A stretch of 64,000 bases of DNA, taken from contig OZ001293.3 in NCBI GenBank assembly GCA_963921275.4, forward strand, positions 5,536,001 to 5,600,000, read 5' to 3'. The notes beneath the pieces are model-generated. The model was not told where the DNA came from, searched no databases, and saw only the letters and a list, made by a program, of their open reading frames with translations. The translations under genes and the position numbers were made by a program. This document shows, one piece after another, positions 18,362 to 62,650 of the stretch. Numbering within the stretch: the stretch's first letter is position 1; each line of letters starts with the position of its first letter. Origin of the DNA: an uncultured Hormoscilla sp. Lineage in GTDB: Bacteria > Cyanobacteriota > Cyanobacteriia > Cyanobacteriales > Desertifilaceae.

Positions 18362-21300
18362 ATGACGAATCAAAAATGGCAATTCTGGATTGACAGGGGC
18401 GGCACCTTTACTGATATCGTAGCTAAAGGTCCGGACGGTAAACTGGTAACTCATAAGTTGCTCTCAGAAAATCCCGATCGCTACCCCGATGCCCCCGTAC
18501 AAGGAATTCGCGATATCTTGGGGCTGAGTCCCGATTTTTCTGGAACGGTTCGCCCCATTCCCCGCGATCTGATAGAAGTGGTGAAAATGGGGACGACGGT
18601 GGCGACCAATGCTTTGCTGGAACGCAAGGGCGATCGCGCGGTTTTGCTAATCACCAAAGGTTTTCGAGACGCCCTCAGAATTGGCTATCAAAACCGTCCC
18701 GACCTCTTCGCCCGTCAGATTATTTTACCAGAAATGCTCTACGAACGAGTCATCGAAGTTGCCGAACGCTACAGCCCCCAGGGAGAAGAGTTAATTGATG
18801 TCAATATCGATGCGATCGCCCCAGCATTGCAAGCTGCTTACGATGACGGGATCCGCAGTTGCGCCATTGTCTTCATGCACGGTTATCGCTATCCCGAACA
18901 CGAGCAAAAAGTAGCTGACTTAGCACGGGCGATCGGGTTTACCCAGGTTTCCCCATCCCATGCAGTCAGTCCCTTGATGAAACTTGTCAGTCGGGGGGAT
19001 ACTACGGTAGTTGATGCCTATTTATCTCCAATTTTGCGCCGCTATGTCGATCTAGTTTATGGTCGCTTGGGGGAGGAAACAAACCTGATGTTCATGCAAT
19101 CGAATGGCGGGTTAGTAAACGCCCAATTGTTCCAGGGTAAAGACAGTATTTTATCAGGTCCAGCAGGGGGAATTGTCGGGGCAGTCCAGACCAGCGCGAT
19201 CGCGGGATTTGACAAAATTATCACCTTTGATATGGGGGGGACTTCTACCGATGTGGCCCATTACAATGGGGAATTGGAACGCAGCTTGGAAACGGAAATT
19301 GCTGGGGTCCGTTTGCGCACCCCCATGATGGCAATTCACACTGTCGCAGCGGGTGGCGGTTCCCTTCTCCAATTCGATAATGGGCGCTATCGCGTCGGTC
19401 CCGAATCAGCAGGGGCAAATCCCGGTCCTGCTTGCTATCGCCAGGGCGGTCCGCTAACAGTAACCGATGCCAACGTAATGCTGGGTAAGTTGCAACCGGA
19501 GTTTTTTCCCAAGGTGTTCGGTCCCCAGGGTAATTTGCCCTTAGATGGGGAAATAGTCAAGGAAAAATTTGCTCAGTTAGCAGCGGAAATAGGGGACGAG
19601 CGCCCGCCGGAACGAGTAGCAGCAGGATTTGTGGCGATCGCCGTCGAAAACATGGCCAACGCCATCAAGAAAATCTCCCTCCAGCGAGGATATGACGTTT
19701 CCAAATACACCCTCTGCTGCTTTGGGGGCGCGGGGGGACAACACGCCTGCTTAATTGCGGATGCCTTGAGAATGCAGCAAGTCTTTTTCCATCCTTTTGC
19801 GGGAGTATTGTCAGCTTATGGCATGGGTTTAGCGGATATTCGGGTATTGCGCGAACAGACAGTGGAAGCGCAATTAACCGCTGAATTAGTGCCAGACTTA
19901 GAACAGCAGTTGGAAAAATTAGCAGCGTCAGCTTTGGCCGAACTCGACTCAAAAAATGATATCTCCGTGCTGCGCAAGATTCACTTAAAATATCAAGGCA
20001 CGGATTCATCCTTGATGGTGGATTTCAGCAATGCAGCAGAGATGCGATCGCAGTTTGAGGTCCAGCATCGCCAGCGTTACGGCTTCGTCATGGAGAATAA
20101 ACAGTTGATTGTCGAAGCAGTTGCCGTCGAACTGGTGCAGTCCTCGGATATTCCCGAAGAACCGATCGTCCCACGGCGCACGGATGCAGCACCCCAACCA
20201 GTCGCCACTGTACCAATGTATAGTGGTAATAGCTGGCGGGAAACCCCCGTATTTCAGCGGTCGGACTTACAACCGGGAGACTGCATTACAGGTGCAGCTA
20301 TTATTATCGAACCCACGGGCACGAATATCATCGAACCGGGATGGCAAGCAGAATTAACCCCCCGCAATCATCTGATTTTGCAGAAGACTCAGAATTCAGC
20401 ATCTGTCAATTCCCCATCTGCCATCCAAAATCTCGCCTCCCCAGATCCAGTCATACTGGAAATTTTCAATAATCTATTTCGTTCGATCGCCGAACAAATG
20501 GGAACTACCCTGCAAAACACCAGCTATTCCGTAAATATCAAGGAAAGGTTAGATTTCTCTTGTGCCATCTTCGACCAAAAGGGACAATTAGTTGCCAATG
20601 CACCCCATATCCCCGTACATCTGGGTTCCATGAGTGAGAGTGTCAACAGTCTGATCTCGGAGTGCGGCGATCGCCTGAAACCGGGAGATGTTTACATTCT
20701 CAACAATCCTTATAATGGGGGTACCCATCTCCCCGACGTGACAGTAATTACTCCCATGTTCGATCTCGAAAATAAATCTTCTCCTCTCTTTTATGTGGTT
20801 TCCCGGGGACATCATGCCGATATTGGCGGTATCACTCCCGGTTCCATGCCACCTAATAGCAAGACAGTAGCAGAAGAAGGAGTGCTGTTGGACAATTTTC
20901 ACCTGGTGGATGGAGGAAAATTCCGGGAAAAGGAACTGCGAGAAATTCTCGGTGCTGGTAAATATCCGGTCCGCAACCCGGTCCAGAATCTCGCCGACTT
21001 GCAGGCCCAAATTGCTGCTAATGAAAAGGGTTTGCAGGAACTCGAACGGATGGTAGCATCCTATGGTAAGGCCACCGTGCAAGCTTATATGGCCTTCGTT
21101 CAGGATAATGCTGAAGAATCAGTGCGTAGGGCGATCGAGACCTTAAAGGATGGCAGTTTCACTCTTCTACTGGATAATGGCAGTCAGATTCAAGTTACAA
21201 TCGAGATCGATCGGGCGAGTCGCAGTGCCAAGATAGATTTTACCGGCACTTCGCCCCAACTGGAGAATAATTTTAATGCCCCATCTGCGGTCTGTAAAGC

Positions 21301-21976
21301 AGCAGTTCTCTACGTCTTCCGCACCCTAGTAAATGACGATATTCCCCTGAATGCGGGATGTCTGAAACCTTTACAAGTAATTATCCCGGCAGGATCGATT
21401 TTAAATCCCCGTTACCCAGCGGCGGTAGTAGCGGGAAATGTAGAAACTTCCCAAGCAATTACCGATGCTTTGTATGGGGCCCTGGGGGTAATGGCCGCCT
21501 CTCAAGGGACCATGAATAACTTCACCTTTGGGAACGATCGCTATCAATATTATGAAACAATTTGTGGAGGTGCGGGTGCGAGTGCCAACTTCCATGGCAC
21601 CGATGCAGTCCATACTCACATGACCAATTCTCGCCTGACAGATCCAGAAGTATTAGAATGGCGATTTCCCGTACTTTTGACCAGCTTTGCCATTCGTGAA
21701 AATAGTGGTGGGAAAGGGCGTCATGCTGGCGGGAATGGAGTGGTACGTCGCCTGCGTTTTCTGGAACCGATGACTGCTGGAATACTTTCCAGTCGGCGTG
21801 TAATTGCACCTTTTGGGTTGCAGGGTGGTGCAGCGGGTGCTTTGGGAAAGAATTACGTGCAGCGCAGTGATGGGACTGTGGTAGAATTGGGCAGTACCGC
21901 GACTGTAGAAATGGAAATTGGAGATGAATTTGTCATTGAAACCCCTGGTGGTGGTGGATATGGTATCCTAGAGTAA
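18362..21976 (+). CDS. 5-oxoprolinase (fused hydantoinase A/B)
   Basis: [48 protein letters not shown] and TPGGGGYG motifs. Confidence 0.95.
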
Positions 21977-22326
21977 ATTAAGAAACCCGGTTTTTACAGA
22001 AAACCCGGTTTACCCTCGTTCCCTGGCTCCGCCGGGGAACGATTTATGGAGGCTCCGCTTCTAGTTGCAAATGGTGCAAAATATGAGTTAAAACCGACTA
22101 ATTAGATTAAGTTGATACCAATTTATTTCACCGTGTTGACTGTGGAGGAGAGGTCATGACCGACAATTCTTTTTTCGACGAGTCGCAGATGACCGGTCTT
22201 TATGGGCGATCGCCAACCGTCGCAGATGACCGGTCCCTATGGGCGTCCGCGTAGCGTGCGCGCAGCGCATTCGTCTCCCAGCCCCTAAACATGATTAAAC
22301 ATGTGTTTATAAATCGCTATTGAAAT

Positions 22327-22682
22327 CCCAAACCTCAAAATTGACGTTTAAAACATGACTGCTGAGGTCCCAAACCTCAAAATTGACGTTTAAAACATGA
22401 CTGCTGAGGTCCCAAACCTCAAAATTGACGTTTAAAACATGACTGCTGAGGTCCCAAACATCAAAATTAACGTTTAAAACATGACTGCTGAGGTCCCAAA
22501 CCTCAAAATTGACGTTTAAAACATGACTGCTGAGGTCCCAAACCTCAAAATTAACGTTTAAAACATGACTGCTGAGGTCCCAAACCTCAAAATTGACGTT
22601 TAAAACATGGCTGCTGAGGTCCCAAACTTCAAAATTGACGTTTAAAACATGGCTGCTGAGGTCCCAAACCTCAAAATTGACG
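22327..22682. repeat. 42-bp tandem repeat, 8 full units plus a partial unit
   Basis: Unit cccaaacctcaaaattgacgtttaaaacatgactgctgaggt starts at 22327, 22369 ... 22621, 22663, with no spacers. Confidence 0.97.
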
Positions 22683-23055
22683 AAAAATTAAACAATTTTT
22701 AAAGCAGTTCGAGGAAAGCAACCTTAGTCCCACGGAAACCGAGAGATCGCGCGATCGCCTGCATACCCAAATCTAGCGCCAGTCAATCAACCAAATAGCA
22801 CCGTCGGATAGCGGCTGAAGATTTGAGTAACTATCACTTCTCACGTTGCAACCATAGCGCCGTTGCCTGCAACCATAGCGCCGCTGCCTGCACAAACCAG
22901 ACGTAAGATTAGTAAGGCGGGTGAGGCGCACAATCATCTGGCAGGCGCGGGGGAGATAAATTATGATTTTTGGCGCCGTCACCCACCACAACTGCTAACT
23001 TGTCAAATATATTCTCAGAGTAAGTTCATACCAACTGTGGAGCATAGGAGAGGTA

Positions 23056-24183
23056 ATGACCAACAATTCTTTTTTCGAGAAGCCTACAGAACAGTCCCGC
23101 GTCAAAGCAGAAATAGTCGCTAAATACTTTTGGGCTTGGGCAAAGGTGATTATCCCGAAGGCAAAGAAAAAACGGACAAACATCGCCTATATCGATCTGT
23201 TTTCTGGTCCTGGTATTTATGAAGATGGTTCTCAGTCTACACCATTGCTGATTTTGAAGCGTGCTATTGCCGAGCCCGATATGCGAGATATGTTAGTAAC
23301 CATCTTTAACGATGTAGACTCGGGCCACACTCAGTCGCTTCAGCAAGCTATCAAATCTCTACCCGATATAAACAGCTTAAAACACAGACCAATAATTATC
23401 AACACTGAGATGGGAGAGGAAATTGCAGAAGAGTGGGATAAAGTTAAATTATATCCTACACTCTCTTTTCTAGATCCTTGGGGTTACAAGGGGTTGTCAC
23501 TAAGTCTGTTCGGAACATTAATCGAGAGTTGGGGTTGTGATTGTATATTTTTCTTCAACTACAACCGGATTAATATGGTATTACATAATCCATCTGAAGA
23601 GAAGCACATGAATTCTTTGTTCGGCAAAGAGCGAGCAGATACCCTTCGAGAAAAAATAAAACCCATGCAACCTGAAGAACGAGAGTCAACTATTGTAGAA
23701 GCTATTTGTCAGGGTTTGAAAGAAGTAGGTGGAACGCACGTTCAGGAGTTTAACTTTAAAAATGCTAGTGGTAGCCGCACTAGCCATTATTTAATTTTTG
23801 TCTCCAAGAATCGGCGTGGTCTCTCAATCATGAAAGATATCATGGCTAAAAAAAGCTCTACTTTCTTTCAGAATGTACCGTCTTATGACTACAATACCCA
23901 GTCCGGACTTCGTCAGCTTTCACTGTTTGACCCTAAACCACTTGACGAACTTGAAGATATGTTGTTGGATAAATTTGCGGGTAGAACCATGACTATGATC
24001 GATGTTTATAACGAGCACTACGTTGATACGTCCTATATCAAGAAAAACTACAAAGATGCTCTCCGGAAGCTAGAGGAGAAAGGCAAAATAATAGCCGATC
24101 CGTCTGCTAGCCAACGACCCAAAAGAGAAGGAAAAATCACATTTGCAGACGAGGTAAAAGTTACATTCCCAGCAAAGCAGTAG
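23056..24183 (+). CDS. tcmP: Three-Cys-motif partner protein (methyltransferase-like fold, C-terminal wHTH)
   Basis: K..IV.KY..AW, YIDLFSGPG..GS.STP, FLDPWG and YLIFVSKN..G...MK motifs. It lies next to a DUF5131 gene. Confidence 0.85.
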   Translation: MTNNSFFEKPTEQSRVKAEIVAKYFWAWAKVIIPKAKKKRTNIAYIDLFSGPGIYEDGSQSTPLLILKRAIAEPDMRDMLVTIFNDVDSGHTQSLQQAIKSLPDINSLKHRPIIINTEMGEEIAEEWDKVKLYPTLSFLDPWGYKGLSLSLFGTLIESWGCDCIFFFNYNRINMVLHNPSEEKHMNSLFGKERADTLREKIKPMQPEERESTIVEAICQGLKEVGGTHVQEFNFKNASGSRTSHYLIFVSKNRRGLSIMKDIMAKKSSTFFQNVPSYDYNTQSGLRQLSLFDPKPLDELEDMLLDKFAGRTMTMIDVYNEHYVDTSYIKKNYKDALRKLEEKGKIIADPSASQRPKREGKITFADEVKVTFPAKQ

Positions 24184-24949: not shown

Positions 24950-25207
24950 ATGCAAATTTAACCACAATAAATTAATTAATGTATGTTAGTAAATATAACA
25001 CTAACTACTAAAATTATGTAAAGGTGAGACCATTTACTCAGACCGGTTGCTTATGGTACGGCCAGAACAACAGGTGCCCGATCGAGAGTACTGTGCAGAG
25101 GGTGGGGATGTATTTGTATACGAGACGAGCTGGTGGGGAGTCACATATAGCGGTAAGATGGATGGGAAGTGATTCCACCATCAGAACCGAAAACTAGGTG
25201 TAACACA

Positions 25208-28200
25208 ATGACAATATCTAAAGGTGAGACAAACCTCTCTGAGTTAGAGCGAGCGATCGCGCTTTATCAGACAGCACTAGAGACCATTGAGTCAGCAAAA
25301 CTAGGGCCGTCAAAAGCACAAGCAATGGAAGTGATCGCGGCCCGGGATGCAGTTCAGGCCGCCCTCAATGAAGAACCATTGGATGGGGTCGAGCCGGGAA
25401 TCGCTTCCCGACCCTCCCTTTCGGAACCGGATTTGCGATTTTCACCGCATCCGGCTACTGGGTACTAGGCCCTTTTCATAGGTAGACTTAATAGGAATTA
25501 CTTCCGTTAGCCCTTGCCGCCTGTCTTTTCTTCCCTTTCCTGGTTTAGCGAGTGGTTGTTCTGATAACCGTTAGTATCACCATTTTCAAGTCAGTTTTAC
25601 CAGTTATCCATACCTTATCCTCCACTTGCGTTTCGGATTAGTTCCGTGGCTTTTTAGGATTACTCATTCCAGCAGCTTCCTAGTATCACCGACCCACGTC
25701 AGCGCTGGCTACCCAGCATCATCTACATTACTGTAGATGTTATCCCAGGAATTACCCCGGGCATTCGCTTCTTGGGCCATCCCTCCCCCCGTGGCTTGCG
25801 CTTAACATCTAACTTGTCCTGATGGACAGCACACGAGAGGTTACTTCGTTCCCTAACAACATTTCGCGATACCTTTAGGTCCACACTATACCCCGGGAGC
25901 TATTTGAGTACTATATTAGCCAGAGTCTAAAACTAATACTAGCTACCATTTCCTTTTTAGGCCAGCGCATATAGCCTTATTTCGCTGGTTCCTTATAACG
26001 AGGCTTGCACATGTTTGCCTGCTCTAACCTTGGATATCTTTCCTAGCGGCGTCACCGGCTTAGGCTGCCAGTTATCCTACATTTGAGTCCTCGCTTAGCA
26101 CCACGATGATGTCGCTTCGTAGCACCGAGGACCGGTGTCACCCCCGTACCTGGGGGGAGGGGAATTTAACCCCCATGCGGTCAGAGTTCCCGGCTAATGA
26201 AACCGGGCTAGCGTTCCGTGTTTGACCACGTTAGGCTAGAACGAATCGCACAGACTCCGCCAAGAGTAGAGCAACTGTCTGTGAGTTGGATAGCAGGTTG
26301 AAAAAACAGGAAAAGGCGATCGCCAGCGCTGGTCCGTTGCCGGAATGGCGCGAGAGCTTGCAGCCACCAGAGTCAGCTTGGTGGTGGTTTTTCTAACCGC
26401 CGATCGACCGGTAGATGCGATTCGACTGGTTGTGGAATGCCTTGACGATTAGCGCCTTAGCATTGTCTGCTAGCTTGATCATGACTACTCTACAGTCTTT
26501 GGCGATCAAAGGATTGACCTGGCAACAGTCCTTTGGAGCCATTCTTCAGGGAGCCGGGTTGGCGGCGATCGGATCCAGCGCACTGACGTCAGAAGGACAG
26601 CAAAAGGTGAGGAACATTCTTAAGAAGACCGGCGTGCCCGAGCGTTTCCAGAGCGAGGCCACTCTGATTGTCTCATTAATGGTGTTGGGAGGTGTCTACA
26701 GCCTGTACAATTTCTTGCCCGGTCGTTTATACGAAAATGGGCTCTCAAGTTATCGGCAGGGGGAGTTGTCCGATGCAGAGGAAAATTTCTTACAGGCGCT
26801 CGAACTGAAACCCGATGATGAGAGGAGCAACATTGCTCTGGGAGAAGTTTACGAATCTATAGGCGATCTCGAAAAGGCGATCGCCCAGTACAAGCAGGCA
26901 TTATCATCGGGCAATCCCAAAGCCTTTAACAACCTGGGGCGCGTGTATATTGACAGAATTGACCCCATCCTAAGAAGGAAAACTTTCTCCTCGCTGAGAC
27001 CTACCTACGGATAGGCTTGCAGCGTGCCAAGGGCACCCGGGAGGAGCCAGATTTGAATGAGGATCCCGATTCCAATAATCCCAATAATATTAAATATGAA
27101 TTGTATAGGAACCTGGGCTGGGCGCTGTTGGAGCAAAAAAAATATCCAGAAGCAGAGTCGGCACTGAAAAAGGCAATTGAATTTGACAATCAGACCCCCG
27201 AATTGCAGCTCGGCTCGGCCATTTCTGAGTGTCTGCTAGCGAAGCTATACAAAATTCAGGGAGATAAGCAACAGCGACAGATGAACTTGAGAGAGTGCCG
27301 GATGCTAGCCCGTCCGGAAACCTTAAATGAATACAAACGGTTGGTTCAGGATGAAGGTATAATGGCAGACTGCATCGACACAACTTTGATCGTCACGGGT
27401 CTGGACAAACTGCCCGTGGAATTTAATGAGTATTGTCGGGCATTGGCTGTGAAGAAACCACTAACAGCACTGACCGATCCTGCTCAAATAGAAGCTTTGG
27501 GGCAGAAGCTGTCAGAAAAAATTCAGCATGCGCTCGTTCCTCATGACAAACGCGCCTTTATCAATGGCAATTTAGTCTACTGGGTAACTGTGGGCGCAGG
27601 AGGGGATGTCATCGCCTTGGAGCCGACGAATAAACTGGCATCTGATGGAGTCCAATATACTCCCCTATTTGCCTTGTTAGAGTCAAATGCTACCCAAGAT
27701 GCTCTGGCTATATTCCAAGTAGTGTTTTCTCCTGACGGTTCCTTTAATGTCAACCCCTTGTCAGAGGAGTCCAAATCTCTAGCAGAGCCCACCTACCATG
27801 CCCCCCGGACGCACGGCGAAAACCCGGGGGGCACGGCCGGAAAAATCGGAAACCCCTCAGGTAAAAACAATTACTGAAGATCCAGCTAAAATAGAAGCTT
27901 TGAGGGTAAAGCTTTTTGATGAAATTGACCGCGTTCGCGTAGCGTGCGCGCAGCGTGCGCGCAGCGCATACTTGGCGCATCGTCCCCAGTTTCAATCAAA
28001 ATTTAGTCTACCAGGTGAGGGTGGACGTACCGTTCCGGAAAAATCGGGGGGCGATCGTCTCCTACGAACCCAAAATTCAACTGGCCTCTGACTTTGTCGT
28101 TCGCGTAGCGTGCGCGCAGCGCATAGAAATTCCCCTCCCCCAATTAGTTTCCCAAAATGCCACCGCGATGTCTCCTGTGTGCTGTGCGCGCAGCGTGGCG

Positions 28201-28316: not shown

Positions 28317-28550
28317 GCAGGTAGACCATTGTTCCTATGTTCGTAGTAAGGACTTTAGTCCTTGCCCTCCGGAAGCACGAAGCGTGCTTACTACAAACGG
28401 AAAGCACTTTCTTCCTTGCCCAAGGTAAGCACGAAGCGTGCTTACTACTATGTATACGAACTGCTACGCAGCAGCTAGTGCGCGTAGCGCTATTAACAAA
28501 TTGCGATGGCAAGCACGCTAGCGCTGACGCTGCTACGCGAAACGTGCTGA

Positions 28551-29702
28551 CTACGAACGGAGAGCAACCCTATTCCAGCGAAAATGTGACAGCAGAGGAT
28601 CTGACTTTTGCTGGCAAACAAAATCGGCAATTAAGTTTGCGGTCACGGGTGCGAGAAGAATGCCATTGCGGTAATGACCGACTGCAAGGGTTAAATTTTG
28701 CCAAGGACTGGGACCAAGAATTGGCAATTCATCTGGAGTTGCAGGTCGATATCCCCACCAAAACTCTTGGATCGGAAAATCTTTGATCGCTGGGTAAAGA
28801 CGAATTGCCCGCCCTAACAATGCTTGCATTCCCTCTGGGGTATTGTGGGGAGTGAAACCTACATCCTCAACAGTAGCACCAATTACAATCAAACCATCCC
28901 GGCGGGGCACGATACCAGTATTGGGACCAAATAACACCCGTTGCAGGGGCAGTTCTTCGATGCCGTCCGGGTGTCGCGCTATTCGCCGTACCCCTTGTCG
29001 CGCATCGTGGTATGATTCTGGGACTCGCACTGATAGCATTTGCCCCTTTTTGGGATACACTGGCACGGACAGTAACTGACCCGACCACGCACCCGTTGCC
29101 AGGATGTAGTGCGACCCGCGCATTTCTCCCATGTTGGTCTGGAGACTAATAACTTTTCCTTGCTGCTGCTGGATTTCTTTTACTTCTATTCCCTCGCGCA
29201 GTTCCACCCCCAATAATTGTGCCGCCACTTGCAGCACTTTAGCTAGCGCCCTGCGATTATCAACCTGTGCATCATTAGGGAACCACCAGCCACCGACCAC
29301 ATCTGCTCCTAAACCATCCTGATATTGATGAATCTCCTCGGAATCTAGCCATTTGCCATCCGATTTTTCCGGAACGGTGGTAGTAATGTCATCAGGAATC
29401 TCGTAGACTGGGGCGAGAATGCCGCAGGACCAGTAGCCAGTGTCTAAGCCAGTAATTGCTGTTAACTTGCTAGTCCAGTCGGGATACATAGCCCGGCTGC
29501 GCAAACAAAGGTCAAGCATGGGACCTGGAGGAATGCCTTCACCTTGGGCCGCAAGCATACCCGCTGCGACATGGGCGGCGGCTTCGGTGAAGTTGCGACT
29601 TAAGACTCGTACCTCGCGCATCCCACGCAATTTTAACTCGATCGCGATCGAGAGACCGATCCAGCCACCGCCGATAATTAGGATGTCAGTAGATGAACTC
29701 AT
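28551..29702 (-). CDS. thiO: Glycine oxidase
   Basis: IIGGG.IGLS, AAGML, LATGAWS, PKKGQ, GYRPATPD and GHYRNGILLAP motifs. It carries repeat-derived in-frame inserts. Confidence 0.92.
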   Translation of the reverse strand: MSSSTDILIIGGGWIGLSIAIELKLRGMREVRVLSRNFTEAAAHVAAGMLAAQGEGIPPGPMLDLCLRSRAMYPDWTSKLTAITGLDTGYWSCGILAPVYEIPDDITTTVPEKSDGKWLDSEEIHQYQDGLGADVVGGWWFPNDAQVDNRRALAKVLQVAAQLLGVELREGIEVKEIQQQQGKVISLQTNMGEMRGSHYILATGAWSGQLLSVPVYPKKGQMLSVRVPESYHDARQGVRRIARHPDGIEELPLQRVLFGPNTGIVPRRDGLIVIGATVEDVGFTPHNTPEGMQALLGRAIRLYPAIKDFPIQEFWWGYRPATPDELPILGPSPWQNLTLAVGHYRNGILLAPVTANLIADFVCQQKSDPLLSHFRWNRVALRS

Positions 29703-34450: not shown

Positions 34451-34965
34451 ATGGCCTGATAATCTCCGGACTTGCCGCCGGTTTTGCTCAAAAGACGAAT
34501 CGATTCAATCTGGATCGACTTTTCCAAGGCTTTGGCCATATCATAGAGAGTCAGGGCGGCCACGGAGACTGCGGTCAGGGCTTCCATTTCCACACCGGTT
34601 TCGGCTTGAGTTTTGACTGTAGCTCGAATCTGATAACCAGGCAACTGGGGGTCTGGGGTCAGCTGCACCTCAATTTTCTGCAGGGGCAGGGGGTGACACA
34701 AGGGAATCAACTGTGCTGTTTGCTTTGCTGCCATAATTCCTGCTATCCTAGCAGTGGCTAACAGATCCCCCTTGGGGGCGTTACCCGATTGTATTGCAGC
34801 CAAGGTTTCTGGCAACATCCGCACCTGACTGGCAGCTACGGCTTGTCGGACAGTCTGGGGCTTGGCGGAAACATCCACCATCTGGGCTTGTCCCTGCTGG
34901 TCCAAATGGCTGAAAAATTTTACCGTTCCGGAAAAATCGGAAAAATTTGTTGGTCTAGTTGTCAT
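34447..34965 (-). CDS. moaC: Cyclic pyranopterin monophosphate synthase
   Basis: [31 protein letters not shown] and K.GGKSG motifs. Confidence 0.95.
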
Positions 34966-35461: not shown

Positions 35462-35809
35462 CCAAAAACAACCAGCACTAACTACCATTTCCCTTTTCGG
35501 CCAGCGTATAAGCCTTATTCCGCTGGTCAATAGTGACGAGGTTTACATAGGTTCGCTTATTCTAACTATCAGCATCTTTCCTATCGCGCAGCGTGGCGCA
35601 GCCATGCGGCATCACTGGCTTAAACTGCCAGCTATCCTACATTTAAGTCCTTGCTTCGCACCACAGCGATATAACTCCGTAGCACTAAGGACCGGTGTTA
35701 CCCCCGCGCCTAGGGAAGGGGAATTTAACCCCCATGATAACCAGAGTTTCTGGCAAATGAAACCAGACAGACTTTCACCGTTACCGATTTACGCCTGAAC
35801 GAATCGCAC
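35462..35809 (-). mobile_element. 5' fragment of a third, divergent group II intron (domain I only)
   Basis: Starts GTGCGATTCGTT and is colinear with families A and B up to the EBS1 stem, where homology stops. Confidence 0.85.
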
Positions 35810-36290: not shown

Positions 36291-38731
36291 CTACTTCCTC
36301 TGGCTATTCTCTGCACTCACCCCAGAGGGTCAAGGTACAGGGCGGTAAATCCTGGTTGCTTGGTGGCCCTGGCGATCGCCTCCTCTCGATCTCCCCATTT
36401 ATGCTATCTAGTTCCCGATTGTATTGCACAACCTTATTGGATTTTGTGCGATTCGTTCTAGCCTAACGTGGTCAAACACGGAACGCTAGCCCGGTTTCAT
36501 TAGCCGGGAACTCTGACCGCATGGGGGTTAAATTCCCCTCCCCCCAGGTACGGGGGTGACACCGGTCCTCGGTGCTACGAAGCGACATCATCGTGGTGCT
36601 AAGCGAGGACTCAAATGTAGGATAACTGGCAGCCTAAGCCGGTGACGCCGCTAGGAAAGATATCCAAGGTTAGAGCAGGCAAACATGTGCAAGCCTCGTT
36701 ATAAGGAACCAGCGAAATAAGGCTATATGCGCTGGCCTAAAAAGGAAATGGTAGCTAGTATTAGTTTTAGACTCTGGCTAATATAGTACTCAAATAGCTC
36801 CCGGGGTATAGTGTGGACCTAAAGGTATCGCGAAATGTTGTTAGGGAACGAAGTAACCTCTCGTGTGCTGTTCATCAGGACAAGTTAGATGTTAAGCGCA
36901 AGCCACGGGGGCAGGGATGGCCCAAGAAGCGAATGCCCGGGGTAATTCCTGGGATAACATCTACAGTAATGTAGATGATGCTGGGTAGCCAGCGCTGACG
37001 TGGGTCGGTGATACTAGGAAGCTGCTGGAATGAGTAATCCTAAAAAGCCACGGAACTAATCCGAAACGCAAGTGGAGGATAAGGTATGGATAACTGGTAA
37101 AACTGACTTGAAAATGGTGATACTAACGGTTATCAGAACAACCACTCGCTAAACCAGGAAAGGGAAGAAAAGACAGGCGGCAAGGGCTAACAGAAGTAAT
37201 TCCTATTAAGTCTACCTATGAAAAGGGCCTAGTACCTAGTAGCCGGATGCGGTGAAAATCGCAAGTCCGGTTCCGAAAGGGAGGGTCGGGAAGCGATTCC
37301 CGGCTCGACCCCATCCACCTTATATGCTAGGCTATCTTTAGGAATCTGCCTCAGTTTCTCGATCGCCTCAATCCATTTAGCTCTAGCATCGGAAAGTTGG
37401 GGTATATTTTTAGCAGCAGCGGCGATCGCTTCTGCGTTATCCAAGAGTTGCTGTGCATACTTCTCCTTATCCAGATGCCCATTCATTATTCTCCGCTGAC
37501 TCTGGTAATTTGTTAATAAACTCTGGGCCTCTGAGTAGAGTCGGGAACTTCCTGGAATCTTTTGCAACTGGCCGATCGCCTCTTCCATGCGCTTGCGTTC
37601 CCGATATAATTCTGGTAATGTTTGGGCATTCTCAAATAGAGTCCTAGCTGACTCAGCTTGGTCTTTTGCCTTATCGATCGCCTGGCGATCTTTCTCATCC
37701 TCTTCAACCTTTACTGATGGCGAATTATTGCCCAACTGTTCTATCATTGCGGGCACAAATGCCATGGCCGAGACGATCGCAATGCCCAGCCCGATCGCAG
37801 CAGCAATTGTATTAATCCCTACTTTAGAGGTTGTCTGCCCAGGGGTAGGAGGAGGGTTGGTTGATGAACTGGGCGACAAGACGACCGTAGTTCCGGTATT
37901 ATTTTGCAAGGATCTGACAGCTTGCAGAGCCTCGGTTGCTGACTGATAGCGCTGACGGCGATCGCGACGCACCATGCGATCTAATACCTTGGCTACATTA
38001 TCGGAGACCTGCGCTTTCTGCCGCCACATAATTTCATCGATATCCCGGTCTCTTGGCAGCCGTTCGGGCTCCAGACCGGTCAAGGCTTGGAGCCCGAACG
38101 TGCCCACGGCATAGACATCGCTGCTTAAATGGGGGTAACCCTCAATTTGTTCGCTGGGCATATAGCCCGGAGTACCGATCATCACGGTGGGAGACCCCCG
38201 ACCATTAATCCCCCCAGCTGTAACTTGCTTTACCGCCCCAAAATCAATCAACACCAACCTCCGATCTTCATGGCGGCGGATGATATTACTCGGCTTAATG
38301 TCCCGATGCACTACATTGTGACGGTGGACAAATTCTAGCACGGCTAATATTTCCGATACTAGCCCGAGCGCTTGTTCGAATGGCAGCCTGCGATCGGGAA
38401 GCAATTCATCACTCAAAGGATGTCCGTCAATAAATTCTTGAACAATAGAGAACTCGCCCTTTTTCTCAAAATAAGCCAGTAGCCGAGGAATTTGCAAATG
38501 TTCTCCCAGCTTTTCTAAAGTTTCCGCCTCTGTTGTAAACAAGCGTCGGGCCGTCTGCATAATTTCAGGATTGGGGTCAGCAAGGTGTAGTTGCTTAACC
38601 ACGCATTTGGGGTGACCGGGGCGCTTAGTATCTTCTGCTAGATAGGTTTGCCCAAAGCTACCTGAACCCAGGGGGGCCGTGACTCTGTAACGTCCATCTA
38701 AAATTTGTCCGATTTTTCCGGAACGGTTTAT
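36291..38731 (-). pseudogene. Ser/Thr protein kinase interrupted near its 3' end by an antisense intron; start codon apparently lost
   Basis: IGQILDGRY..LGSGSFGQTYLAED..CVVKQL, HRDIKPSN, LIDFGAVK and GTPGY. The frame resumes after the intron (AYKV|KSNKVVQY). The expected ATG reads ATA next to a 15-nt insert. Confidence 0.8.
36446..37316 (+). mobile_element. ORF-less group II intron, family A, copy 3 (871 bp)
   Basis: GTGCG...ACCCCATCC, near-identical to copies 1 and 2. Confidence 0.95.
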
Positions 38732-40175: not shown

Positions 40176-40536
40176 TATTATGGCCTGACATCCGTTAACT
40201 GATTTGATTTGTGCAGCATATAGCTGGCGATAACAAACCGGGTTTCTCTGAGAAACCCGGTTTGAAGATATTGCAAATTGTTACCGTTCCGGAAAAATCG
40301 GACGATGGGGCGATCGCACTGGCCACCCCACATCCAATACCTCTCGGTTAAGCAGGGGGGCGGGAGATTGCTAGTGCTCCTGCGTCGCACCGCTGCGCTT
40401 TTACGAAGTGCGCGTAGCGCTACGGGGGTCTCTTCAATTGCCCATAAGTTAATCCCTACGTAACCCCCCCTCGCAATGACAACTTATATCCTTAACCGAG
40501 AAGTATTGACCCCACATCAACCCAACTGGCGATCGC

Positions 40537-42568: not shown

Positions 42569-42930
42569 TCGATGTCTACCGTTCCGGAAAAATCGGGACG
42601 CTAGCTGCTGCGCTAGCGCGAAAACCCCGAAGACATCGATCGCCGGTAGAATCAACTCGGTTTCTGGCCGTCACGCCTGGAGTGGGGAGTCTCGCAGATG
42701 CGATCCTATCGGGACAAGAGCGAAAAAATAGGCGTGGCTTGGGCATCAAACCCTTTCACAGAGCCATTTTTAGGTCGCGATGTCTGATTTTTCCGGAACG
42801 GTGGGGTTTTTGCCATGCATCCCTCAGACATCGTAGGGTCTCCTTGGACGCAGGCGAGCGGGTTTCAGCCATTTAATAGCCTTCTTCGATGTCTACCGTT
42901 CCGGAAAAATCGGGACGTGCGAAAACCCCG
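42569..42930. repeat. Cluster of nested short palindromic elements (CGATGTCT...AGACATCG hairpins carrying 15-nt inserts)
   Basis: Three units start at about 42570, 42778 and 42887. Confidence 0.8.
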
Positions 42931-43211
42931 TATCCCTTGCGGGAGCGCAGCAATACGACACGACGTAAAATCCTCACTCCGTAAGGGTTTGAGCAGCTTT
43001 TTGCCTGAGAAAATTGCTCTTGACCCGCTATGAAAACTTTATTAAGACAGAAGCCATAAAAGTATACCCGTATATAAAATCATTGATTACGTTAAGTGAC
43101 CATAGGATCTCCAGCGTAGCGTGTTGTTGCGCTATGCCCACACCACGGTTTAGGGCTACTAAAGAGCGAACCTAGATCGCCATTGAAGTCACGCGCAATT
43201 ATAGATAGAAC

Positions 43212-48762
<5,551 letters not shown>

Positions 48763-49457
48763 AATAACCTCGCTTCCCGCCACCCCGCCTCACCCTAAAG
48801 GGTGGGGCTACATGAACAAAGCCCGCCTGCGCGGGCTACCGTTCCGGAAAAATCAGGATCTGTGGTAGACTCGTAGCGTGGGCAGTGGATCGTGTCTTAC
48901 CGCTACCGGTGATAGCTAGATCGTTGACCGGTGAAACCGGGTTTCTTTATTTCTTTGATAACACACACGAGAAACTCGGTTTCTGGGGATACTTGACCTA
49001 TGTAGTAGAATGGTTTGGTAGGATTGTAAGTATCCAATGAGGGATGAGCGTCGCTCTTTTTTCATAGGATTCTGTGGTAGACTCGTAGGGTAAGCACTCT
49101 CTGGCGCTTTATCGCTACCGGTGGCAGCTAGTAGGATTATGTGGGCAGCTAGTAGGATTCTGTGGTAGGATATTAAGCGTCTAATAAGGGGCGATCCTTG
49201 TTAAACCGCAAAGTGACAGGTTAATCAGTGTGATATTTAGTGTTTGTTGGTGTAGTTGACAATGGTCTCAGCGCCAGTTTTCCAGAGAATTTCCTTGATG
49301 TTGCTGAAAGTGGTGGCAATTAGTGGAATTATGTGGTAGAATAAGTATCTAACAAAGATGGTTATCCAGAACCAAAAGGACGTTGGACTGGTAGAAAAGG
49401 GCAAAAAGCACAGTGTGATAAAGCTGTTGAAATAGTAAGAAAAATTTTAGAATCCAA

Positions 49458-53011: not shown

Positions 53012-53067
53012 GCGATCGGCAGCAATCTCCCATCGGACCAGTATAACAGATTATCTACCTTAACATC

Positions 53068-54183: not shown

Positions 54184-54186
54184 AAC

Positions 54187-56846: not shown

Positions 56847-56861
56847 CAACTAACAATAATT

Positions 56862-57030
56862 GGCGTTGCACAACTACGGGATGATAAGGGTTGAAAATTG
56901 AAAATTGTGAATGGTCAATTGAAATAGTCATAAATGTTCTAGAATAGACTATATTAGCTTATTCAATTTTCAATTTTCAATTTTCAATTTGCAACCATTG
57001 ACTGCTATCATCCCAAAAATGTGCAACGCC
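56862..57030. mobile_element. MITE-like element (169 bp)
   Basis: Imperfect 25-bp TIRs ggcgttgcacaactacgggatgata / tatcatcccaaaaatgtgcaacgcc, enclosing heptamer tracts. Confidence 0.7.
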
Positions 57031-57036
57031 CAATAA

Positions 57037-58323
57037 TTAATCTATAGCATAAACATCTTTGCCCCAGCCGATCGCATACCGGAGAGAATGAGATAAGTTT
57101 TTACTGGACATGGTAGTGAAAATTATGAGATTGATAAAGGCGATCGCAGCAGCAAGGGCGAACAGAGTATGATAATTAAATAAATCCGCAACGGTGCCAA
57201 ATGCTGGACCTGCGATCGCGATACCCAAATCAAATCCGCCCAGGAACAAACTAAAAATCCGCCCCCGTTCTTGAGGGTGGCAGCGGTCTGCCATCATCGC
57301 AGACAGGGAAGGAATAAGTATACCAAACCCCGACCCTTCTATAATGCCTGCGATTAAAAAGCCTCTGGCATCCTGGATGAAAGTCCACAAAATTAGCATC
57401 CCCAAGGCTTGCAGCAGGATAGCAATGCTAATAAACAACCCTCTGCCAAACCGCACGCTCAAGGGACCGACTGCTACGCGAGTGCAGAAGCTAGCGATCG
57501 CACTGGCAGTATAGAACCAGCCGGGATTAAGATCGACATTCATATCTTTAATAAATAAAGGCACGAATGTTGTCCGGGCTGCAAAAACCAGTGCTACTAG
57601 GAACAGCACCAGGGTAGGAATGCGGATGGGATGACTGTTTAACAAACTCCAGAATTTGTCTGATTTGGGCTTCTCTGGGAGATCCTGTGGGGTTTTCTGC
57701 ACCGATGGTTCTCTGATTTGTAAGCAAAAGACTAGACTCAATACTCCTAAAGAGGAGGTCAAGAGAAATAAAGGCCCATAACCGAATGATTCGGTCACAA
57801 CACCCTCCACAGCTGGCCCGATCGCCAGACCCAAGGGAGCCACCAACAGCATGTAGCCAATAATTTCTCCCCGATGTTGGGGGGGAGAAATGTCTGCCAC
57901 TAGGGCCAGATAGGCTGTGGTCAAGGCAGAAATACTGATGCCGTGGAACGCCCGGACTGCTATCAGCACCGGAATAGACACACCAACTAGATAGCCCAGG
58001 GGGGCGATCGCCACCACCGAGATCCCAATCAACAGAACAATTTTGCGACTACGTATGTCCGCCATCTGCCCCAGAGGCCTGCGAGACAGCAGCAGTCCAA
58101 TGGAAAATGATCCTATGACAATGCCCACATCTTGAGGAGTGCCCCCCACATGCTGGATATACAGAGGCAGGGTGCCCAGCAGAGAACCGATACTGCACCA
58201 AAACAGCAAAGCTGCCATGAACAGTCTCAGCAGGTCGTTGCGTAACTTGGGACTGAGGGTGCTAAAAACCTTCAAAACTGAATTTCCCCAGACTGAAAGA
58301 ACTTCTACTGCTCTGTCGCACAC
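57037..58323 (-). CDS. MFS transporter
   Basis: About 12 hydrophobic segments and the motif G.MAD..SRK. The true start is probably about 48 nt downstream of the listed start. Confidence 0.9.
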   Translation of the reverse strand: MCDRAVEVLSVWGNSVLKVFSTLSPKLRNDLLRLFMAALLFWCSIGSLLGTLPLYIQHVGGTPQDVGIVIGSFSIGLLLSRRPLGQMADIRSRKIVLLIGISVVAIAPLGYLVGVSIPVLIAVRAFHGISISALTTAYLALVADISPPQHRGEIIGYMLLVAPLGLAIGPAVEGVVTESFGYGPLFLLTSSLGVLSLVFCLQIREPSVQKTPQDLPEKPKSDKFWSLLNSHPIRIPTLVLFLVALVFAARTTFVPLFIKDMNVDLNPGWFYTASAIASFCTRVAVGPLSVRFGRGLFISIAILLQALGMLILWTFIQDARGFLIAGIIEGSGFGILIPSLSAMMADRCHPQERGRIFSLFLGGFDLGIAIAGPAFGTVADLFNYHTLFALAAAIAFINLIIFTTMSSKNLSHSLRYAIGWGKDVYAID

Positions 58324-58410
58324 GCAGAAACAGCTTATCTATCCTATTATGCTGTTTTACCATCCTGCTGCGCATCGCCGGTGCTGGCCAGACCCGCTCG
58401 GCTTAGAGGT

Positions 58411-58439
58411 AAAAAAATCAGGGCGACAACGCCCTGATT
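58411..58439 (-). terminator. Rho-independent terminator
   Basis: On the minus strand, aatcagggcg-ttgt-cgccctgatt is followed by a T run. Confidence 0.75.
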
Positions 58440-58517
58440 ATTGCAAACATGGAGTAGAACAACAATTTATCTAGTGCTGCGTTTAACCCTCACAAATCCA
58501 ACAAGTAGATCCGTGCA

Positions 58518-59352
<835 letters not shown>

Positions 59353-59783
59353 AGTATAACATCAGCATCTTTCGACGCTGAAGGCCACAGCCAGCAAAGC
59401 TCTTGGCGTAACACGCTACCGGGCTACTGGTCCTGCGAGCGCTTATAGTTAGCAGCCAGGGCTAGCCATCGGTCTGCTTTTTTCTAGCTTAGTGGACTTG
59501 CCTCGCAAAAAGCAAGTAATATATCGGATTTGCCGCTCTCAAGTAAGACGAGCGCCTGCTTGGCGCCATAATACGGAACTCCCGAGAGTATGCAAGTAAC
59601 CCGCAAAATGGAACTCTCGCAGGGTCCGATTACCCCAAATATGCCCAGATCTGTAAGTTTTTGAGCACTTGGTCGCAACTCTGTTTGCATCTAGAATTTG
59701 GTGCCCAGACCAGAGGAGGGGCTGTGTCGAGTGCCCCTTAATTTTCCTGCCCGCAACGTCCGATACGTTGCACCGGTGTAGCC

Positions 59784-60038
59784 CTAGATGCCTTGACGAG
59801 ACGCCAGCTTTTCAAAATTGGCCTGAGTTTGCTGTAGGAGCTGTTCTCGGCTATTTGTGGTTTGCTTGAGACTGGGGACCAGGTTGCGAGATTGTAGGGC
59901 CATGTGAAGCTGAAGATGGGCTACATACTCGCTGAAGCCTTCACTCGATATTGGGTTTTGGGTTTGTAGTTGATGTCTATTCAAGGTGTTCTCCTTCCCT
60001 AACGCGGCGTCATTGCCAACATCAATAGATGTTATCAC
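59784..60038 (-). CDS. Small conserved-looking hypothetical protein
   Basis: FSEYVAHLQLHMALQSRNLVP..REQLLQQTQANFEK helical pattern. Confidence 0.6.
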   Translation of the reverse strand: MITSIDVGNDAALGKENTLNRHQLQTQNPISSEGFSEYVAHLQLHMALQSRNLVPSLKQTTNSREQLLQQTQANFEKLASRQGI

Positions 60039-60374
60039 GCCCCTGAGACCCTCTGGACTAGTTCTTAATGAAGCTTAACTTTTTGCTGCTCTTTTATTAA
60101 CTTTTATAATGGTATCTAACATTTTTGCTAGTTTCGCTTAAGTTATGGTATAGGAGATTATCTGGTGCTAGGGACCGCTATGCCAGTTGGCAAGGGAGAC
60201 CGGGCGGGCGATCGCCATTATTTGACGATAAAGTCAACAGCAGTGCTGGTTGAATAATGTTATGCTCAAAGAGCCCGTTCTGAGAAAGCATGACAAATTG
60301 AAAATTGAAAATTGAAAATTGAAAAACTAACAACTGACAACTAACAACTAACAACTGACAAGGAGAGAAAGGAC

Positions 60375-61055
60375 ATGAAAAAAGATTTTGCAGTTGTGAT
60401 GTATCTGCTGCGGGAACGGCAGCAGTTTCTGGAAGAAATTAGCCAAGGGGTAAAGCTTAAATCTAAATTCTTAGGTCTGCTGATTTCTAGTTCGACATTT
60501 TTTGCCATCTATGGCCTGATAATGGGAGCATCCAGTAGTTGGTATCAAGCACTGGTTTCAGCGATCAAGTTGCCCGCCCTCTACTTGCTGACGGCCCTGA
60601 TCTGCTTTCCGACATTATACTTTTTCAATGTCATGTTTGGGGCGAAGCGAACTTTCGAGCAGTATTTGACTTTGCTGATGACGGCGATGTCATTAATTAG
60701 CGTTTTAATGTTTGGGTTTGCCCCGGTAGCGCTGTTTTTCCTGCTGAGTACGGACAATTACCTATTTTTTCTGTTGCTGAATGTGGCAATTCTCGGACTA
60801 ACGGGATTTTTGGGAGTTGATTTTTTCTATCAAGGCATGAAATTTCTTGCCGAGCAAGATAGCGAGGGTTGGGAACTCGGTTCTCAAATTTTGCTCTTAT
60901 GGTTGCTCCTTTATGCTTTTGTAGGCTGTCAATTAGAATGGATATTGAGACCTTTTTTCGGCTCCCCGGGATCGCCTTTCCAGCTTTTTCGCGAACTGGA
61001 AAGCAATTTTTATGTTGCCATAATCAAAGCGATATACTCTCTGTTCGGGTATTAA
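60375..61055 (+). CDS. Integral membrane protein (Yip1-like topology)
   Basis: Five TM segments, KLPALYLLT..ICFPTLY and W.LRPFFG motifs, and a good RBS. Confidence 0.75.
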   Translation: MKKDFAVVMYLLRERQQFLEEISQGVKLKSKFLGLLISSSTFFAIYGLIMGASSSWYQALVSAIKLPALYLLTALICFPTLYFFNVMFGAKRTFEQYLTLLMTAMSLISVLMFGFAPVALFFLLSTDNYLFFLLLNVAILGLTGFLGVDFFYQGMKFLAEQDSEGWELGSQILLLWLLLYAFVGCQLEWILRPFFGSPGSPFQLFRELESNFYVAIIKAIYSLFGY

Positions 61056-61081
61056 CTTAAATCTCTATTTAGCAGCAAATC

Positions 61082-61756
61082 ATGCAACAGGATTTGGCGG
61101 ATTTACAAATTACAGAAAAACAGGTAGAATCGTTAAGTGGCCTACCATGGGAGGAGGCGTTAGTCGGGAATTTATACAGCGGTGGGGTAGCACTCCTGGG
61201 AAAGCAGCTATTGGCATTTGCTCTCACTTTAATTATTTCTCTGCCCCTGGCATTACTCCTGACTAAAAATAGCAGTTATGGGCCGGAAGATTCTCAGGCG
61301 ATCGCCCAGCTGTTAAGCATCACCTTGAGGTTATCATTGGGTCTCACTTTGGGGTGGAATATCTATATGTGGAGGAAAGCCAAGCCTCTGAAAACTCTGG
61401 CGCGTCTGCTGGATGAAGTTAACAAATATTGCCAAGTGATTAAAGCTGTAGATATTATCGATAAACTAACAGCAGCGGGCAACTTGGAAGCAAGTTTGAT
61501 TAACCGCGAGGAGGTAATGGATGCGCTGCTGGTGACTAGAGACAGTTTAACTTCGGCGTTGCAGACAGAAAGAATTCTCAGAGAAAACCAGGATTTTATT
61601 AGCAGTCACTATCAGTTATTTGCTAATCTGGAAAATCAGCTAGCCGCCTTGATGGCATTAGAGGTGAGCAACCAAGCAAGTGAATATGGGAGGTTACTGA
61701 ATGAAGCATTAGAAATTGGCATGAGCGTGCAGCGAGAAATGCGAAAATTACGGTAG
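61082..61756 (+). CDS. Hypothetical membrane protein with a coiled-coil C-terminus
   Basis: Two TM segments and AL.TERILREN..EYGRLLNEAL. Confidence 0.7.
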   Translation: MQQDLADLQITEKQVESLSGLPWEEALVGNLYSGGVALLGKQLLAFALTLIISLPLALLLTKNSSYGPEDSQAIAQLLSITLRLSLGLTLGWNIYMWRKAKPLKTLARLLDEVNKYCQVIKAVDIIDKLTAAGNLEASLINREEVMDALLVTRDSLTSALQTERILRENQDFISSHYQLFANLENQLAALMALEVSNQASEYGRLLNEALEIGMSVQREMRKLR

Positions 61757-61908
61757 CATCTCGCTGTTGGGTTAATCTTGAATTCCTTCACGCAGTCCGA
61801 TCGCGATTTTGCTATGCTTTTCAATCTGTCCCATCACCGGCTTGGCCCACTGAATCACCACTGGGGGCAAACCTGCCAAACGCCCTGCTTCTATGCCATT
61901 GACAATAA

Positions 61909-62650
61909 TTAATCTATGGCATAAACATCTTGGCCCTTGCCGATCGCATACCGGAGAGAATAAGATAAGTTTTTGCTGCACATGGTGGTAAAAATTAGTA
62001 GATTGACAAAGGAGAGCGCAGTAGCAAGGGCGAACATACTGCGATAATCCCATGAAGAAGCAACTAAGCCAAATGCTGGACCTGCGATCGCCATGCCAAA
62101 ATCCAACCCCCCCAGGCACAAACTAAACACGCGCCCCCGTTCGTTAGGGTAGCAGCGGTCTGCGCTCGTGGCAGACATTAGGGGCATAATCATACCAAAC
62201 CCTAACCCAAGTAAAGTGTATGGCATTACCGACGACAATCCACAAAGTTAGCATCCCCGTACAGCAGCAGAGAAATGCTAATAAGTAGCCCTGTGCCACA
62301 CCAAACGCTCAAGGGACCGATTGCTTTTCGACTGCATAAGCTAGCGATCGAACTGGCGGTATAGAACCAGCTGGAATTGAGAGCGACATTTAGATCTTTA
62401 ATAAATAAAGGAACGAAGGTTTCCCGGGCTGCAAAAACCACTCCTACTAAGAACAGCACTAGAGTAGGAATGCCGATGCTCTGACTGTTTAACCTACTCC
62501 AGAATTTGTCCTCTTTCGGCTGCGATGTCCGATTTTTCCGGAACGGTACCTGTTCTGTTTGAGGCACTGATGGTTCTCTGACTTGTAAGCCACAGACTAG
62601 ACTCAATAATCCTAACCCGGAGGTGAAGAGAAATAAAGTCGAATAACCGA
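61909..62650 (-). pseudogene. MFS transporter paralog, 5'-truncated and frameshifted
   Basis: Colinear with the C-terminal half of 57037-58323 and split between two frames. Confidence 0.85.

Follow-up and report, generated by a model that had tools for sequence, protein, structure and literature searches.

A 15-nt hairpin element inserted before TCGG in Hormoscilla genomes

Copies of the 15-nt element in the window

The window analysed here, 64,000 nt of DNA from an uncultured Hormoscilla sp. (contig OZ001293.3, positions 5,536,001 to 5,600,000), harbors twelve matches to one 15-nt sequence, the 15-mer, while 0.17 are expected by chance and no more than 2 were obtained in 100 shuffles. A preceding sequence-only reading had taken these matches for site-specific insertions, and all twelve positions were matched exactly, the one at 18535 with a single mismatch. 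The 15-mer was said to lie immediately before TCGG or TCAG without target duplication. Ten copies are followed by TCGG and two by TCAG, and the empty orthologous sites described below agree. The source genome (G000) was compared with those of four congeners (G001 to G004).

Pfam matches confirmed the proposed host genes, encoding oxoprolinase, a DAO/thiO-type oxidase, MoaC and glutamate synthase, and the insertions are read in the frames DFSGTV, TVPEKS or PFRKNR. The copy in the oxoprolinase gene (18535..18549, minus strand), with a stem broken by the mismatch, occupies a GA^TCGG site, is antisense in a DFSGTV-type frame and is missing from all four congeners. The copy in the thiO-type oxidase gene (29364..29378, minus) is in sense orientation, read as TVPEKS, and the site is again empty in four of four congeners; the gap amounts to a net 12 nt in three of them because of a separate 3-nt difference. 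In moaC, the 15-mer (34922..34936, plus, DFSGTV) is located in the N-terminal leader upstream of the MoaC domain and is likewise absent from all four. PFRKNR is the frame of two further copies. One is found in a short open reading frame (ORF) without Pfam match (28029..28043, plus), for which no spanning ortholog is available. The other lies in a broken MFS paralog (62533..62547, minus), to which the intact, element-free paralog at 57037-58323 aligns with a 15-nt gap, in line with the colinearity claimed for this pair.

Two copies are intergenic. The first (38713..38727, minus) is shared with G001, the site being empty in G002 to G004 (GCGG), and the second (40283..40297, plus) is shared with G003 and empty in G004 (TCCG). 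Another one (48838..48852, plus), empty in G003, directly follows a palindrome resembling repetitive extragenic palindromes (REP) downstream of gltB. This palindrome, at 48815-48838, gave an Rfam match to CRISPR-DR28, is dispersed in about 115 copies over the source genome and appears to be a repeat of the REP type instead of a CRISPR array.

The remaining four copies are associated with a palindromic host repeat (CGATGYCT...AGACATCG). Those at 42578..42592 (plus) and 42788..42802 (minus) are each placed in one arm of the repeat (about 42569-42637 and 42778-42832), the latter with an empty paralog in the same genome. The copy at 44589..44603 (plus) is nested in the palindrome at about 44581-44661 within gltB, just 5' of a group II intron. 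Removal of the 15 nt yields perfect hairpin arms of 14, 13 and 13 bp, respectively, compared with 9, 10 and 8 bp before, as had been predicted. At 42895..42909 (plus) the 15-mer follows the same arm sequence, but there is no partner arm within 70 nt and removal restores none. The repeat is a hotspot of insertion, with 21 filled and 51 empty arms in the source genome, and the four copies therefore do not necessarily represent independent insertions. The repeat at 42569-42637, 42778-42832 and 44581-44661 also enters genes and hosts other inserts. Contigs of the runs X1 to X3 match 42888-44663 nearly letter for letter, including the copy at 44589, with 30 extra bases in the gltB palindrome at 44617-44620; these contigs span 14.5 kb across this position, which is not so for X4. 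Near-identical strains thus differ by nested micro-inserts, and perhaps also by the adjacent intron.

Copy number and host range

In total, the source genome contains 180 exact and 58 one-mismatch copies, all of them chromosomal, and 19 of the latter represent a single variant with the loop TGC. The genome-wide count and the flank logo suggested by the sequence-only reading thus gave 180 exact copies with a 3' consensus of TCGG. Within a tandem repeat of seven 89-nt units (5096118-5096680 of the source chromosome), each unit carries a one-mismatch 15-mer; these were amplified together with the host unit and not inserted separately. One 31-kb contig of the assembly (C3), at 17.6% G+C compared with 47% for the genome, is probably foreign to the organism.

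Exact 15-mers were found in all four congeners, 26 to 149 in each, and in none of 36 other genomes searched. A scan of GTDB genomes produced at least 80 matches, all to Hormoscilla except five single matches among the matches listed, and the loci align to the source genome at up to 99%, which identifies the host as a Hormoscilla. Viral contigs gave no match, and a metagenome scan gave 42, mostly single ones. No match to the 15-mer was obtained in Rfam, and no description of it was found in the literature searched, which consisted mostly of papers available without subscription; the 2008 paper on small dispersed repeats (SDRs) may list related motifs.

Insertion at empty orthologous sites

For eleven of the window sites, 62533 being left out, orthologs were searched in the congeners; six had a spanning alignment, and all six were empty in at least one congener, as the sequence-only reading would have it. 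Among 135 sites of the relatives in a first test, 52 had no ortholog in G000, 35 were filled and 48 were empty or gapped, many by exactly 15 nt. In about 2.6 Mb of congener sequence, part of the four genomes and picked largely around known copies, 52 de-duplicated 15-mer events had a clean empty ortholog. With relaxed filters, 457 sites yielded 95 events, in which the base at -1 was unchanged in 86 and +1 was T in both alleles in 88. The insertion unit is exactly 15 nt with fixed boundaries, gained before TCGG without duplication.

Private copies are present in every Hormoscilla lineage. Three samples of a single study, one of which may be the source sample, yielded contigs that bridge the copies at 29364, 34922 and 38713 without gaps. 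Insertion of the 15-mer is real and ongoing. Together, empty orthologs and in-gene copies uphold the earlier view of a precise, site-specific and duplication-free insertion that is tolerated in genes.

Target site and junctions

The bases following exact copies are T (100%), C (98%), G (87%) and G (88%), the T at +1 being invariant in 167 of 167 unique flanks. The preceding base is C in 48%, T in 44% and A in 7%, and never G. An A at -1 would be typical of the highly iterated palindrome HIP1, which has been connected with site-specific recombination and with the precise insertion of SDR5 (PMC4390886, accessible part). The frequency of A at this position is 85% for E24, a 24-nt sibling described below, 58% for a second 15-mer, 8% for the 15-mer flagged here and 36% for all NTCGG sites. 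The depletion from 36% to 8% indicates that the flagged 15-mer has moved off HIP1. A HIP1-like site had been proposed on the basis of the oxoprolinase copy; this stands for 18535 but not for the family. The target appears to be a degenerate, asymmetric HIP1-type site, at which the 15-mer sits at Y^TCGG. Covariation of the flanks indicative of a hairpin in the target was not detected.

Two siblings of the 15-mer with the same junction, B22 and E24, provide a view of the first target base. Whenever +1 is A in one of their events, which was the case in 5 of 28 (background 0.6%, p 7e-7), the empty allele shows T. Furthermore, all 7 head-to-tail arrays with B22 as the last unit have A at +1, compared with 30 of 115 single events (p 8e-5), and two other head-to-tail arrays consist of T-first units. 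Among 323 events of the flagged 15-mer, whose ends differ (A and T), no such array was found. Multimers are confined to units with identical bases at their two ends, and the first target base is replaced in the 22- and 24-nt siblings; both are new observations. The T-to-A swap and the multimer rule suggest that one base overlaps at the junction, as it would in circles, staggered exchange or template switching by reverse transcriptase (RT); for the 15-mer this would hold by analogy.

Gene conversion in the form of overwriting of TCGG had also been suggested. Mismatches at +1 to +4 (48 of 399, against 5.1%) looked enriched, but with motif-matched controls p was 0.12 for the 15-mer and 0.05 for all families. 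The apparent overwriting was dismissed because element-free TCGG is hypermutable at +3 (11.8% of 12,433), so that only the +1 T-to-A swap of B22 and E24 survives. A change from A to C at -1 (4 of 38, p 0.04-0.09) is not claimed. As an observation of its own, the third base of element-free TCGG diverges by 11.8% compared with 5% in the flanks in alignments of G000 with G001 to G004, largely by transversions, which may reflect a mutational bias linked to HIP1 or methylation.

Hairpin structure and related elements

One strand of the inserted element reads CCGA^TTTTT-CCG-GAA-CGG-T^R, that is, five T residues, a stem of 3 bp capped by a GNA loop, and a single T. In the second 15-mer, with 113 copies in the source genome, the stem is compensated to CGC/GCG. 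Further siblings sharing the junction are D24 (24 nt, 74 copies), the two-hairpin element B22 (22 nt, 104 copies) and the SDR5-like E24 (24 nt, 113 copies). In the window, B22 is represented at 35584..35605 (minus) and E24, with A at +1, at 28101..28124 (minus). Many D24 copies were amplified inside one insertion sequence. At 1179766-1182060 of the source chromosome and in about ten related copies, this insertion sequence, ISKra4-like judging by its peptide, took up five to six D24 elements in one orientation as well as a group II intron lacking an ORF, and was subsequently amplified. Within this family of 15- to 24-nt siblings, which includes the SDR5-like 24-mer in HIP1, the 15-mer is the shortest member and has a single hairpin.

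The source genome contains 349 strings of the type A-stem3-loop3-stem3-A5-T, 294 of which belong to five variants. Their loops are TTC, TGC, TAC or TCC, which is GNA on the other strand, and their stems CCG/CGG and CGC/GCG. In one-mismatch loop variants of the 15-mer the middle base is affected 23 times and the outer bases once and twice. A5 is present in 180 of 180 exact copies, with no A4 or A6, and in D24 G.A is replaced by A.G on the same strand. As DNA, mini-hairpins of the GCGNAGC type are exceptionally stable and resist nucleases, and the RNA counterpart examined was much weaker, according to the accessible part of PMC13037366. That the loops are GNA on one of the strands, which is a motif of DNA mini-hairpins, is new here. 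Because the loops are GNA on this strand, vary at the middle base and match a motif stable in DNA, the CCGA-T5-hairpin-T strand is probably single-stranded DNA at some step; this is compatible with RT, whose cDNA would be the same strand.

Outside the genus, the second 15-mer was detected in 1 of 296 non-congeners, in two copies, and 138 of 301 genomes from the order contain the 3' hairpin shared by the sibling families. The design of one hairpin plus A5 was at control level in five hairpin-rich genomes of other families. The 15-mer probably arose in Hormoscilla when an SDR5-type ancestor lost one of its hairpins.

Copies within genes

Crude ORF calls (ORFs of at least 250 aa) placed 85 of 209 copies (41%) inside genes, compared with 46% of targets. 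Orientation was not biased, with 43 sense and 42 antisense copies. The frames DFSGTV (37) and TVPEKS (29) account for 66 of the 85 (p 1.6e-4 against target availability). Separately, a tandem array of T-first 15-mers was seen at 4116585-4116674 of the source chromosome (L417), in frame in mfd, which encodes the transcription-repair coupling factor (1167 aa).

Donors and search for a master locus

The TGC variant is locally clustered. Its nearest-neighbour distance in G000 has a median of 21 kb versus 111 kb (p 0.007), and across genomes four adjacent TGC-TGC pairs were counted versus 0.74 expected among 162 pairs (p 0.007). In G000 and G001, it occupies different, mutually empty sites within one alignment of about 600 bp. 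Local clustering of this rare variant, with two lineages hit at different sites of the same region, is a new observation.

The sequence-only reading had proposed to look for a longer master locus or non-coding RNA beside an RT, recombinase or nuclease. None was found in low-copy loci, dense clusters or events shared across Hormoscilla, and none of 98 other hairpin ends belonged to an autonomous parent of greater length that shares this 3' end. The only event common to G000, G001, G002 and G004, located 5' of duplicated hsdS-like genes of type I restriction, was considered and is unconvincing as a master. Local clustering of TGC and the lack of a master locus favour copying or hopping from nearby DNA. 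Same-orientation bursts were not significant (14 versus 6 within 500 bp, p 0.12). For replichore bias, GC skew was too weak as a basis, and no obvious strand bias was apparent.

Possible mechanisms of insertion

The explanation ranked first, though held at somewhat less than even confidence, is site-specific strand exchange at the DNA level by a candidate enzyme using local single-stranded mini-hairpin donors. A nearby chromosomal 15-mer would be copied as a single-stranded DNA mini-hairpin and joined by the enzyme at Y^TCGG without duplication. The intermediate would be a 15-nt circle or an oligonucleotide linked to the enzyme, overlapping by one base at the junction, and the same enzyme would also move the 22- to 24-nt SDR5-like siblings. 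In favour of this are the precise empty sites, the pattern of stems and loops, the local donors of the TGC variant, the junction rule of the siblings and the connection of HIP1 with recombination.

A number of results weigh against strand exchange of this kind. Searches of Y1, Y2, neighbour genes and clusters revealed no enzyme gene for the 15-mer. The Y1/HUH genes in G000 to G004, of which G000 has one intact and one broken, are flanked by other palindromes; IS91-type Y2 transposases were found in none of the five genomes, in a search in which the positive control was silent everywhere as well. In 30 loci from 29 low-copy genomes no neighbouring gene was shared by more than three, the best being a PIN-like toxin and an RRXRR/IscB-like protein, named from inspection of their sequences and not by a family scan. 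The 88 proteins of 16 dense clusters correspond to ordinary genes. The +1 swap holds for the siblings only (15-mer: 4 of 51, p 0.21), the multimers could be due to slippage on ATGG/ACGG or TCGC microhomology, and the other four of five variant pairs showed no local clustering. As to the hairpin, the G:C closing pair of the 15-mer is weaker, by about 3 kcal/mol (PMC3201870, accessible part), and ViennaRNA yields only -1.5 kcal/mol for the linear 15-mer and no fold for a circle. The first hairpin of two-hairpin relatives in other genera has GNA on either strand. The contrast between 2,492 TRC loops and 64 loops without both outer bases (five of them GAA on the reported strand) in 30 hairpin-rich genomes, in itself a point for the GNA strand, is partly circular, since these genomes were chosen for TRC loops. 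Finally, in 47 hand-picked genomes, which are related and not independent and for which some counts are lower bounds, sibling hairpin load correlated better with RT count (rho 0.57) than with Y1 count (0.42) or genome size (0.39).

Beside the survey of neighbouring genes, it was observed that at three of the 30 low-copy loci (L275, L276 and L284, from other genera) a two-hairpin element stands next to an RRXRR/IscB-like gene, in two of them just upstream, where a guide RNA would lie.

These RT counts lead to the strongest competitor, doubtful as it is, which was already raised in the sequence-only reading as RNA- or RT-templated insertion. Where the target is broken, a group II intron RT would take up a small top-strand RNA (or DNA); from the CCGA-3' end it would switch template via one base pair, copy and rejoin, repeated switching giving multimers and the cDNA folding as a GNA hairpin. 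There are 93 RT matches in G000, and rho rises to 0.66 within hairpin-positive genomes; Y1 count and genome size correlate with the hairpins too, however. Four genomes (G250, G068, G134 and G286) with 20 to 33 RT matches have no hairpin match, and two (G280 and G098) with 2 to 3 RT matches have 74 and 44 hairpins. A 1-nt overhang paired to the 3' base of the acceptor, followed by multiple switches, as described in the accessible part of 10.1101/2021.05.13.443781, fits the +1 T and the multimers, and the GNA strand would be the cDNA strand. On the other hand, no source RNA or master locus was found, a separate nuclease would be needed for the target cut and for exact RNA ends from varied flanks, local clustering of a variant is unexpected from a diffusible RNA, and in-gene copies lack a bias for sense or antisense (43 versus 42). 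Group II introns are abundant, with about 330 intron-like spans on the source chromosome, mostly of about 900 nt and ORF-less and covering at least 4% of it, and five domain V-VI matches in the window. But 15-mer copies are no closer to them than random targets (p 0.63), 1 of 204 lies inside one, and TCGG does not follow intron ends, the 3' boundary pattern being approximate with an offset of about 3 nt. Of the RT proposal, the correlation with hairpins and the one-base junction thus remain in its favour, while the missing master locus, local clustering, the lack of intron proximity and the absence of strand bias do not agree with it.

Improbable, but next in rank, is insertion without any dedicated mobiliser. 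In this case nuclease-resistant mini-hairpins from single-stranded DNA turnover would be patched into nicks or one-base gaps made at the target motif by repair or by a HIP1-related nuclease. Resistance of mini-hairpins to nucleases is documented in the part of PMC13037366 available, every family ends one base past the hairpin, the +1 base is replaced in the siblings, and donors are local. The exact length, the single orientation and the family-specific upstream preferences are tighter than in usual patch repair, and ragged or flank-carrying insertions were not found above background.

A trans-acting Y1/HUH enzyme (RAYT or IS200/IS605 type) that cuts single-stranded DNA after CCGA and after the hairpin and transfers the strands would be a named version of the strand exchange ranked first and is placed last among the enzymatic proposals, as an unlikely one. 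A tetranucleotide 5' of the cut, the lack of duplication and the hairpin follow the logic of IS200/IS605 and REP; TnpA-REP cleaves and strand-transfers single-stranded DNA and reads hairpin loops (PMC8266576, accessible part), and all five Hormoscilla genomes contain Y1 matches. Yet Y1 is present in 44 of 46 genomes whatever the hairpin load, with a rho of 0.21 within positive genomes. None of 20 Y1 loci has a 15-mer within 1.5 kb, most being situated among other palindromes, there is no GTAG tag, and HUH transfer would leave the +1 base unreplaced.

An adapter or assembly artefact, or an ancestral motif deleted in the relatives, has a negligible probability, as copies are found on both strands, in subfamilies, under frame selection and private to lineages in every genome, in five assemblies and in contigs of three samples, but not in 36 genomes outside the genus or in viral contigs. 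The sequence-only reading had named ancestral copies, random boundaries and artefact as grounds for giving up the element; empty orthologs, fixed ends and bridging contigs speak for keeping it.

Relation to known repeats and mobile elements

Hairpins of SDRs are supported by compensatory changes. Their length in the set SDR1-8 of Elhai et al. 2008 reportedly ranges from 21 to 27 nt. SDR5 comprises 21 nt, and the function of SDRs is still called unknown in the accessible part of PMC13756078; they are said to be confined to Nostocaceae, with none found outside, in that of Xu 2018 (PMC5861425). The kinship to these repeats proposed in the sequence-only reading is supported, since the 15-mer is dispersed, of high copy number and precise, and forms a hairpin with compensatory changes. 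Both are tiny, are inserted at a fixed bond without duplication, contain G+C mini-hairpins and nest in other repeats; the E24 sibling resides in HIP1 (A at -1 in 85%), its 3' hairpin is common to the second 15-mer, orthologous sites are empty, and the stems CCG/CGG and CGC/GCG are compensatory. In contrast to SDR5, the 15-mer has 15 instead of 21 nt, one hairpin plus A5 instead of two hairpins and the target Y^TCGG, with HIP1-type A^TCG depleted. Unlike SDRs in general, it occurs in Hormoscilla, outside Nostocaceae, and with 41% of its copies in long ORFs. Because length, HIP1 target and lineage do not fit, the 15-mer is a new SDR-like variant and not a member of SDR1-8, as far as these are characterized in citing papers.

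Similarity to other systems is partial. REP/REPIN-RAYT repeats (PMC3116915 and PMC8266576, accessible parts) are also short, non-autonomous hairpins with probable processing of single-stranded DNA and unexplained spread, but the 15-mer has no GTAG tag in its flank logos, does not occur as doublets, has a fixed target motif, lacks a linked RAYT (0 of 20 Y1 loci within 1.5 kb) and is frequent in coding DNA. Template switching by group II RT (10.1101/2021.05.13.443781, accessible part) shares the one-base junction rule and head-to-tail multimers but was studied in vitro on supplied RNAs and has no target specificity, and no source RNA was found here. Siblings with CGC stems contain the exact GCGNAGC motif on one strand; the closing pair of the flagged 15-mer is G:C and weaker, and the part of PMC13037366 available shows no role in mobility. 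Miniature inverted-repeat transposable elements differ by terminal inverted repeats and target duplication, both lacking in the 15-mer. In their general features, IS200/IS605 and IS91/Helitron elements have a one-sided tetranucleotide target, no duplication and a hairpin near the end in common with the 15-mer, which lacks a transposase, is too short for two ends or guides and has one hairpin, not two; neither a cognate TnpA nor an autonomous parent was found for it. Points of comparison with IS608 were taken from the accessible part of PMC8266576.

Implications

Taken further, and as a tentative possibility, a cyanobacterial strand-exchange system, probably tied to HIP1, would excise and insert single-stranded DNA mini-hairpins of at least 15 nt with a one-base overlap; the 15-mers of Hormoscilla would be its minimal substrates, drifted to Y^TCGG and rewriting the proteome five residues at a time. 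How SDRs move has been an open question since 2008, and the 15-mer cuts the substrate down to 15 nt. The rules deduced for the folding strand, the junction positions, the one-base overlap and the local donors are testable with synthetic oligonucleotides. Finding the enzyme, if this is true, would explain SDR mobility and might provide a tool for scar-free micro-insertion. Presence or absence of the 15-mer at individual sites also provides markers for Hormoscilla strains. If mobile by copying at the DNA level, the 15-mer would be among the smallest mobile elements known, and its copies in genes represent protein evolution through repeated five-residue insertion under frame selection.

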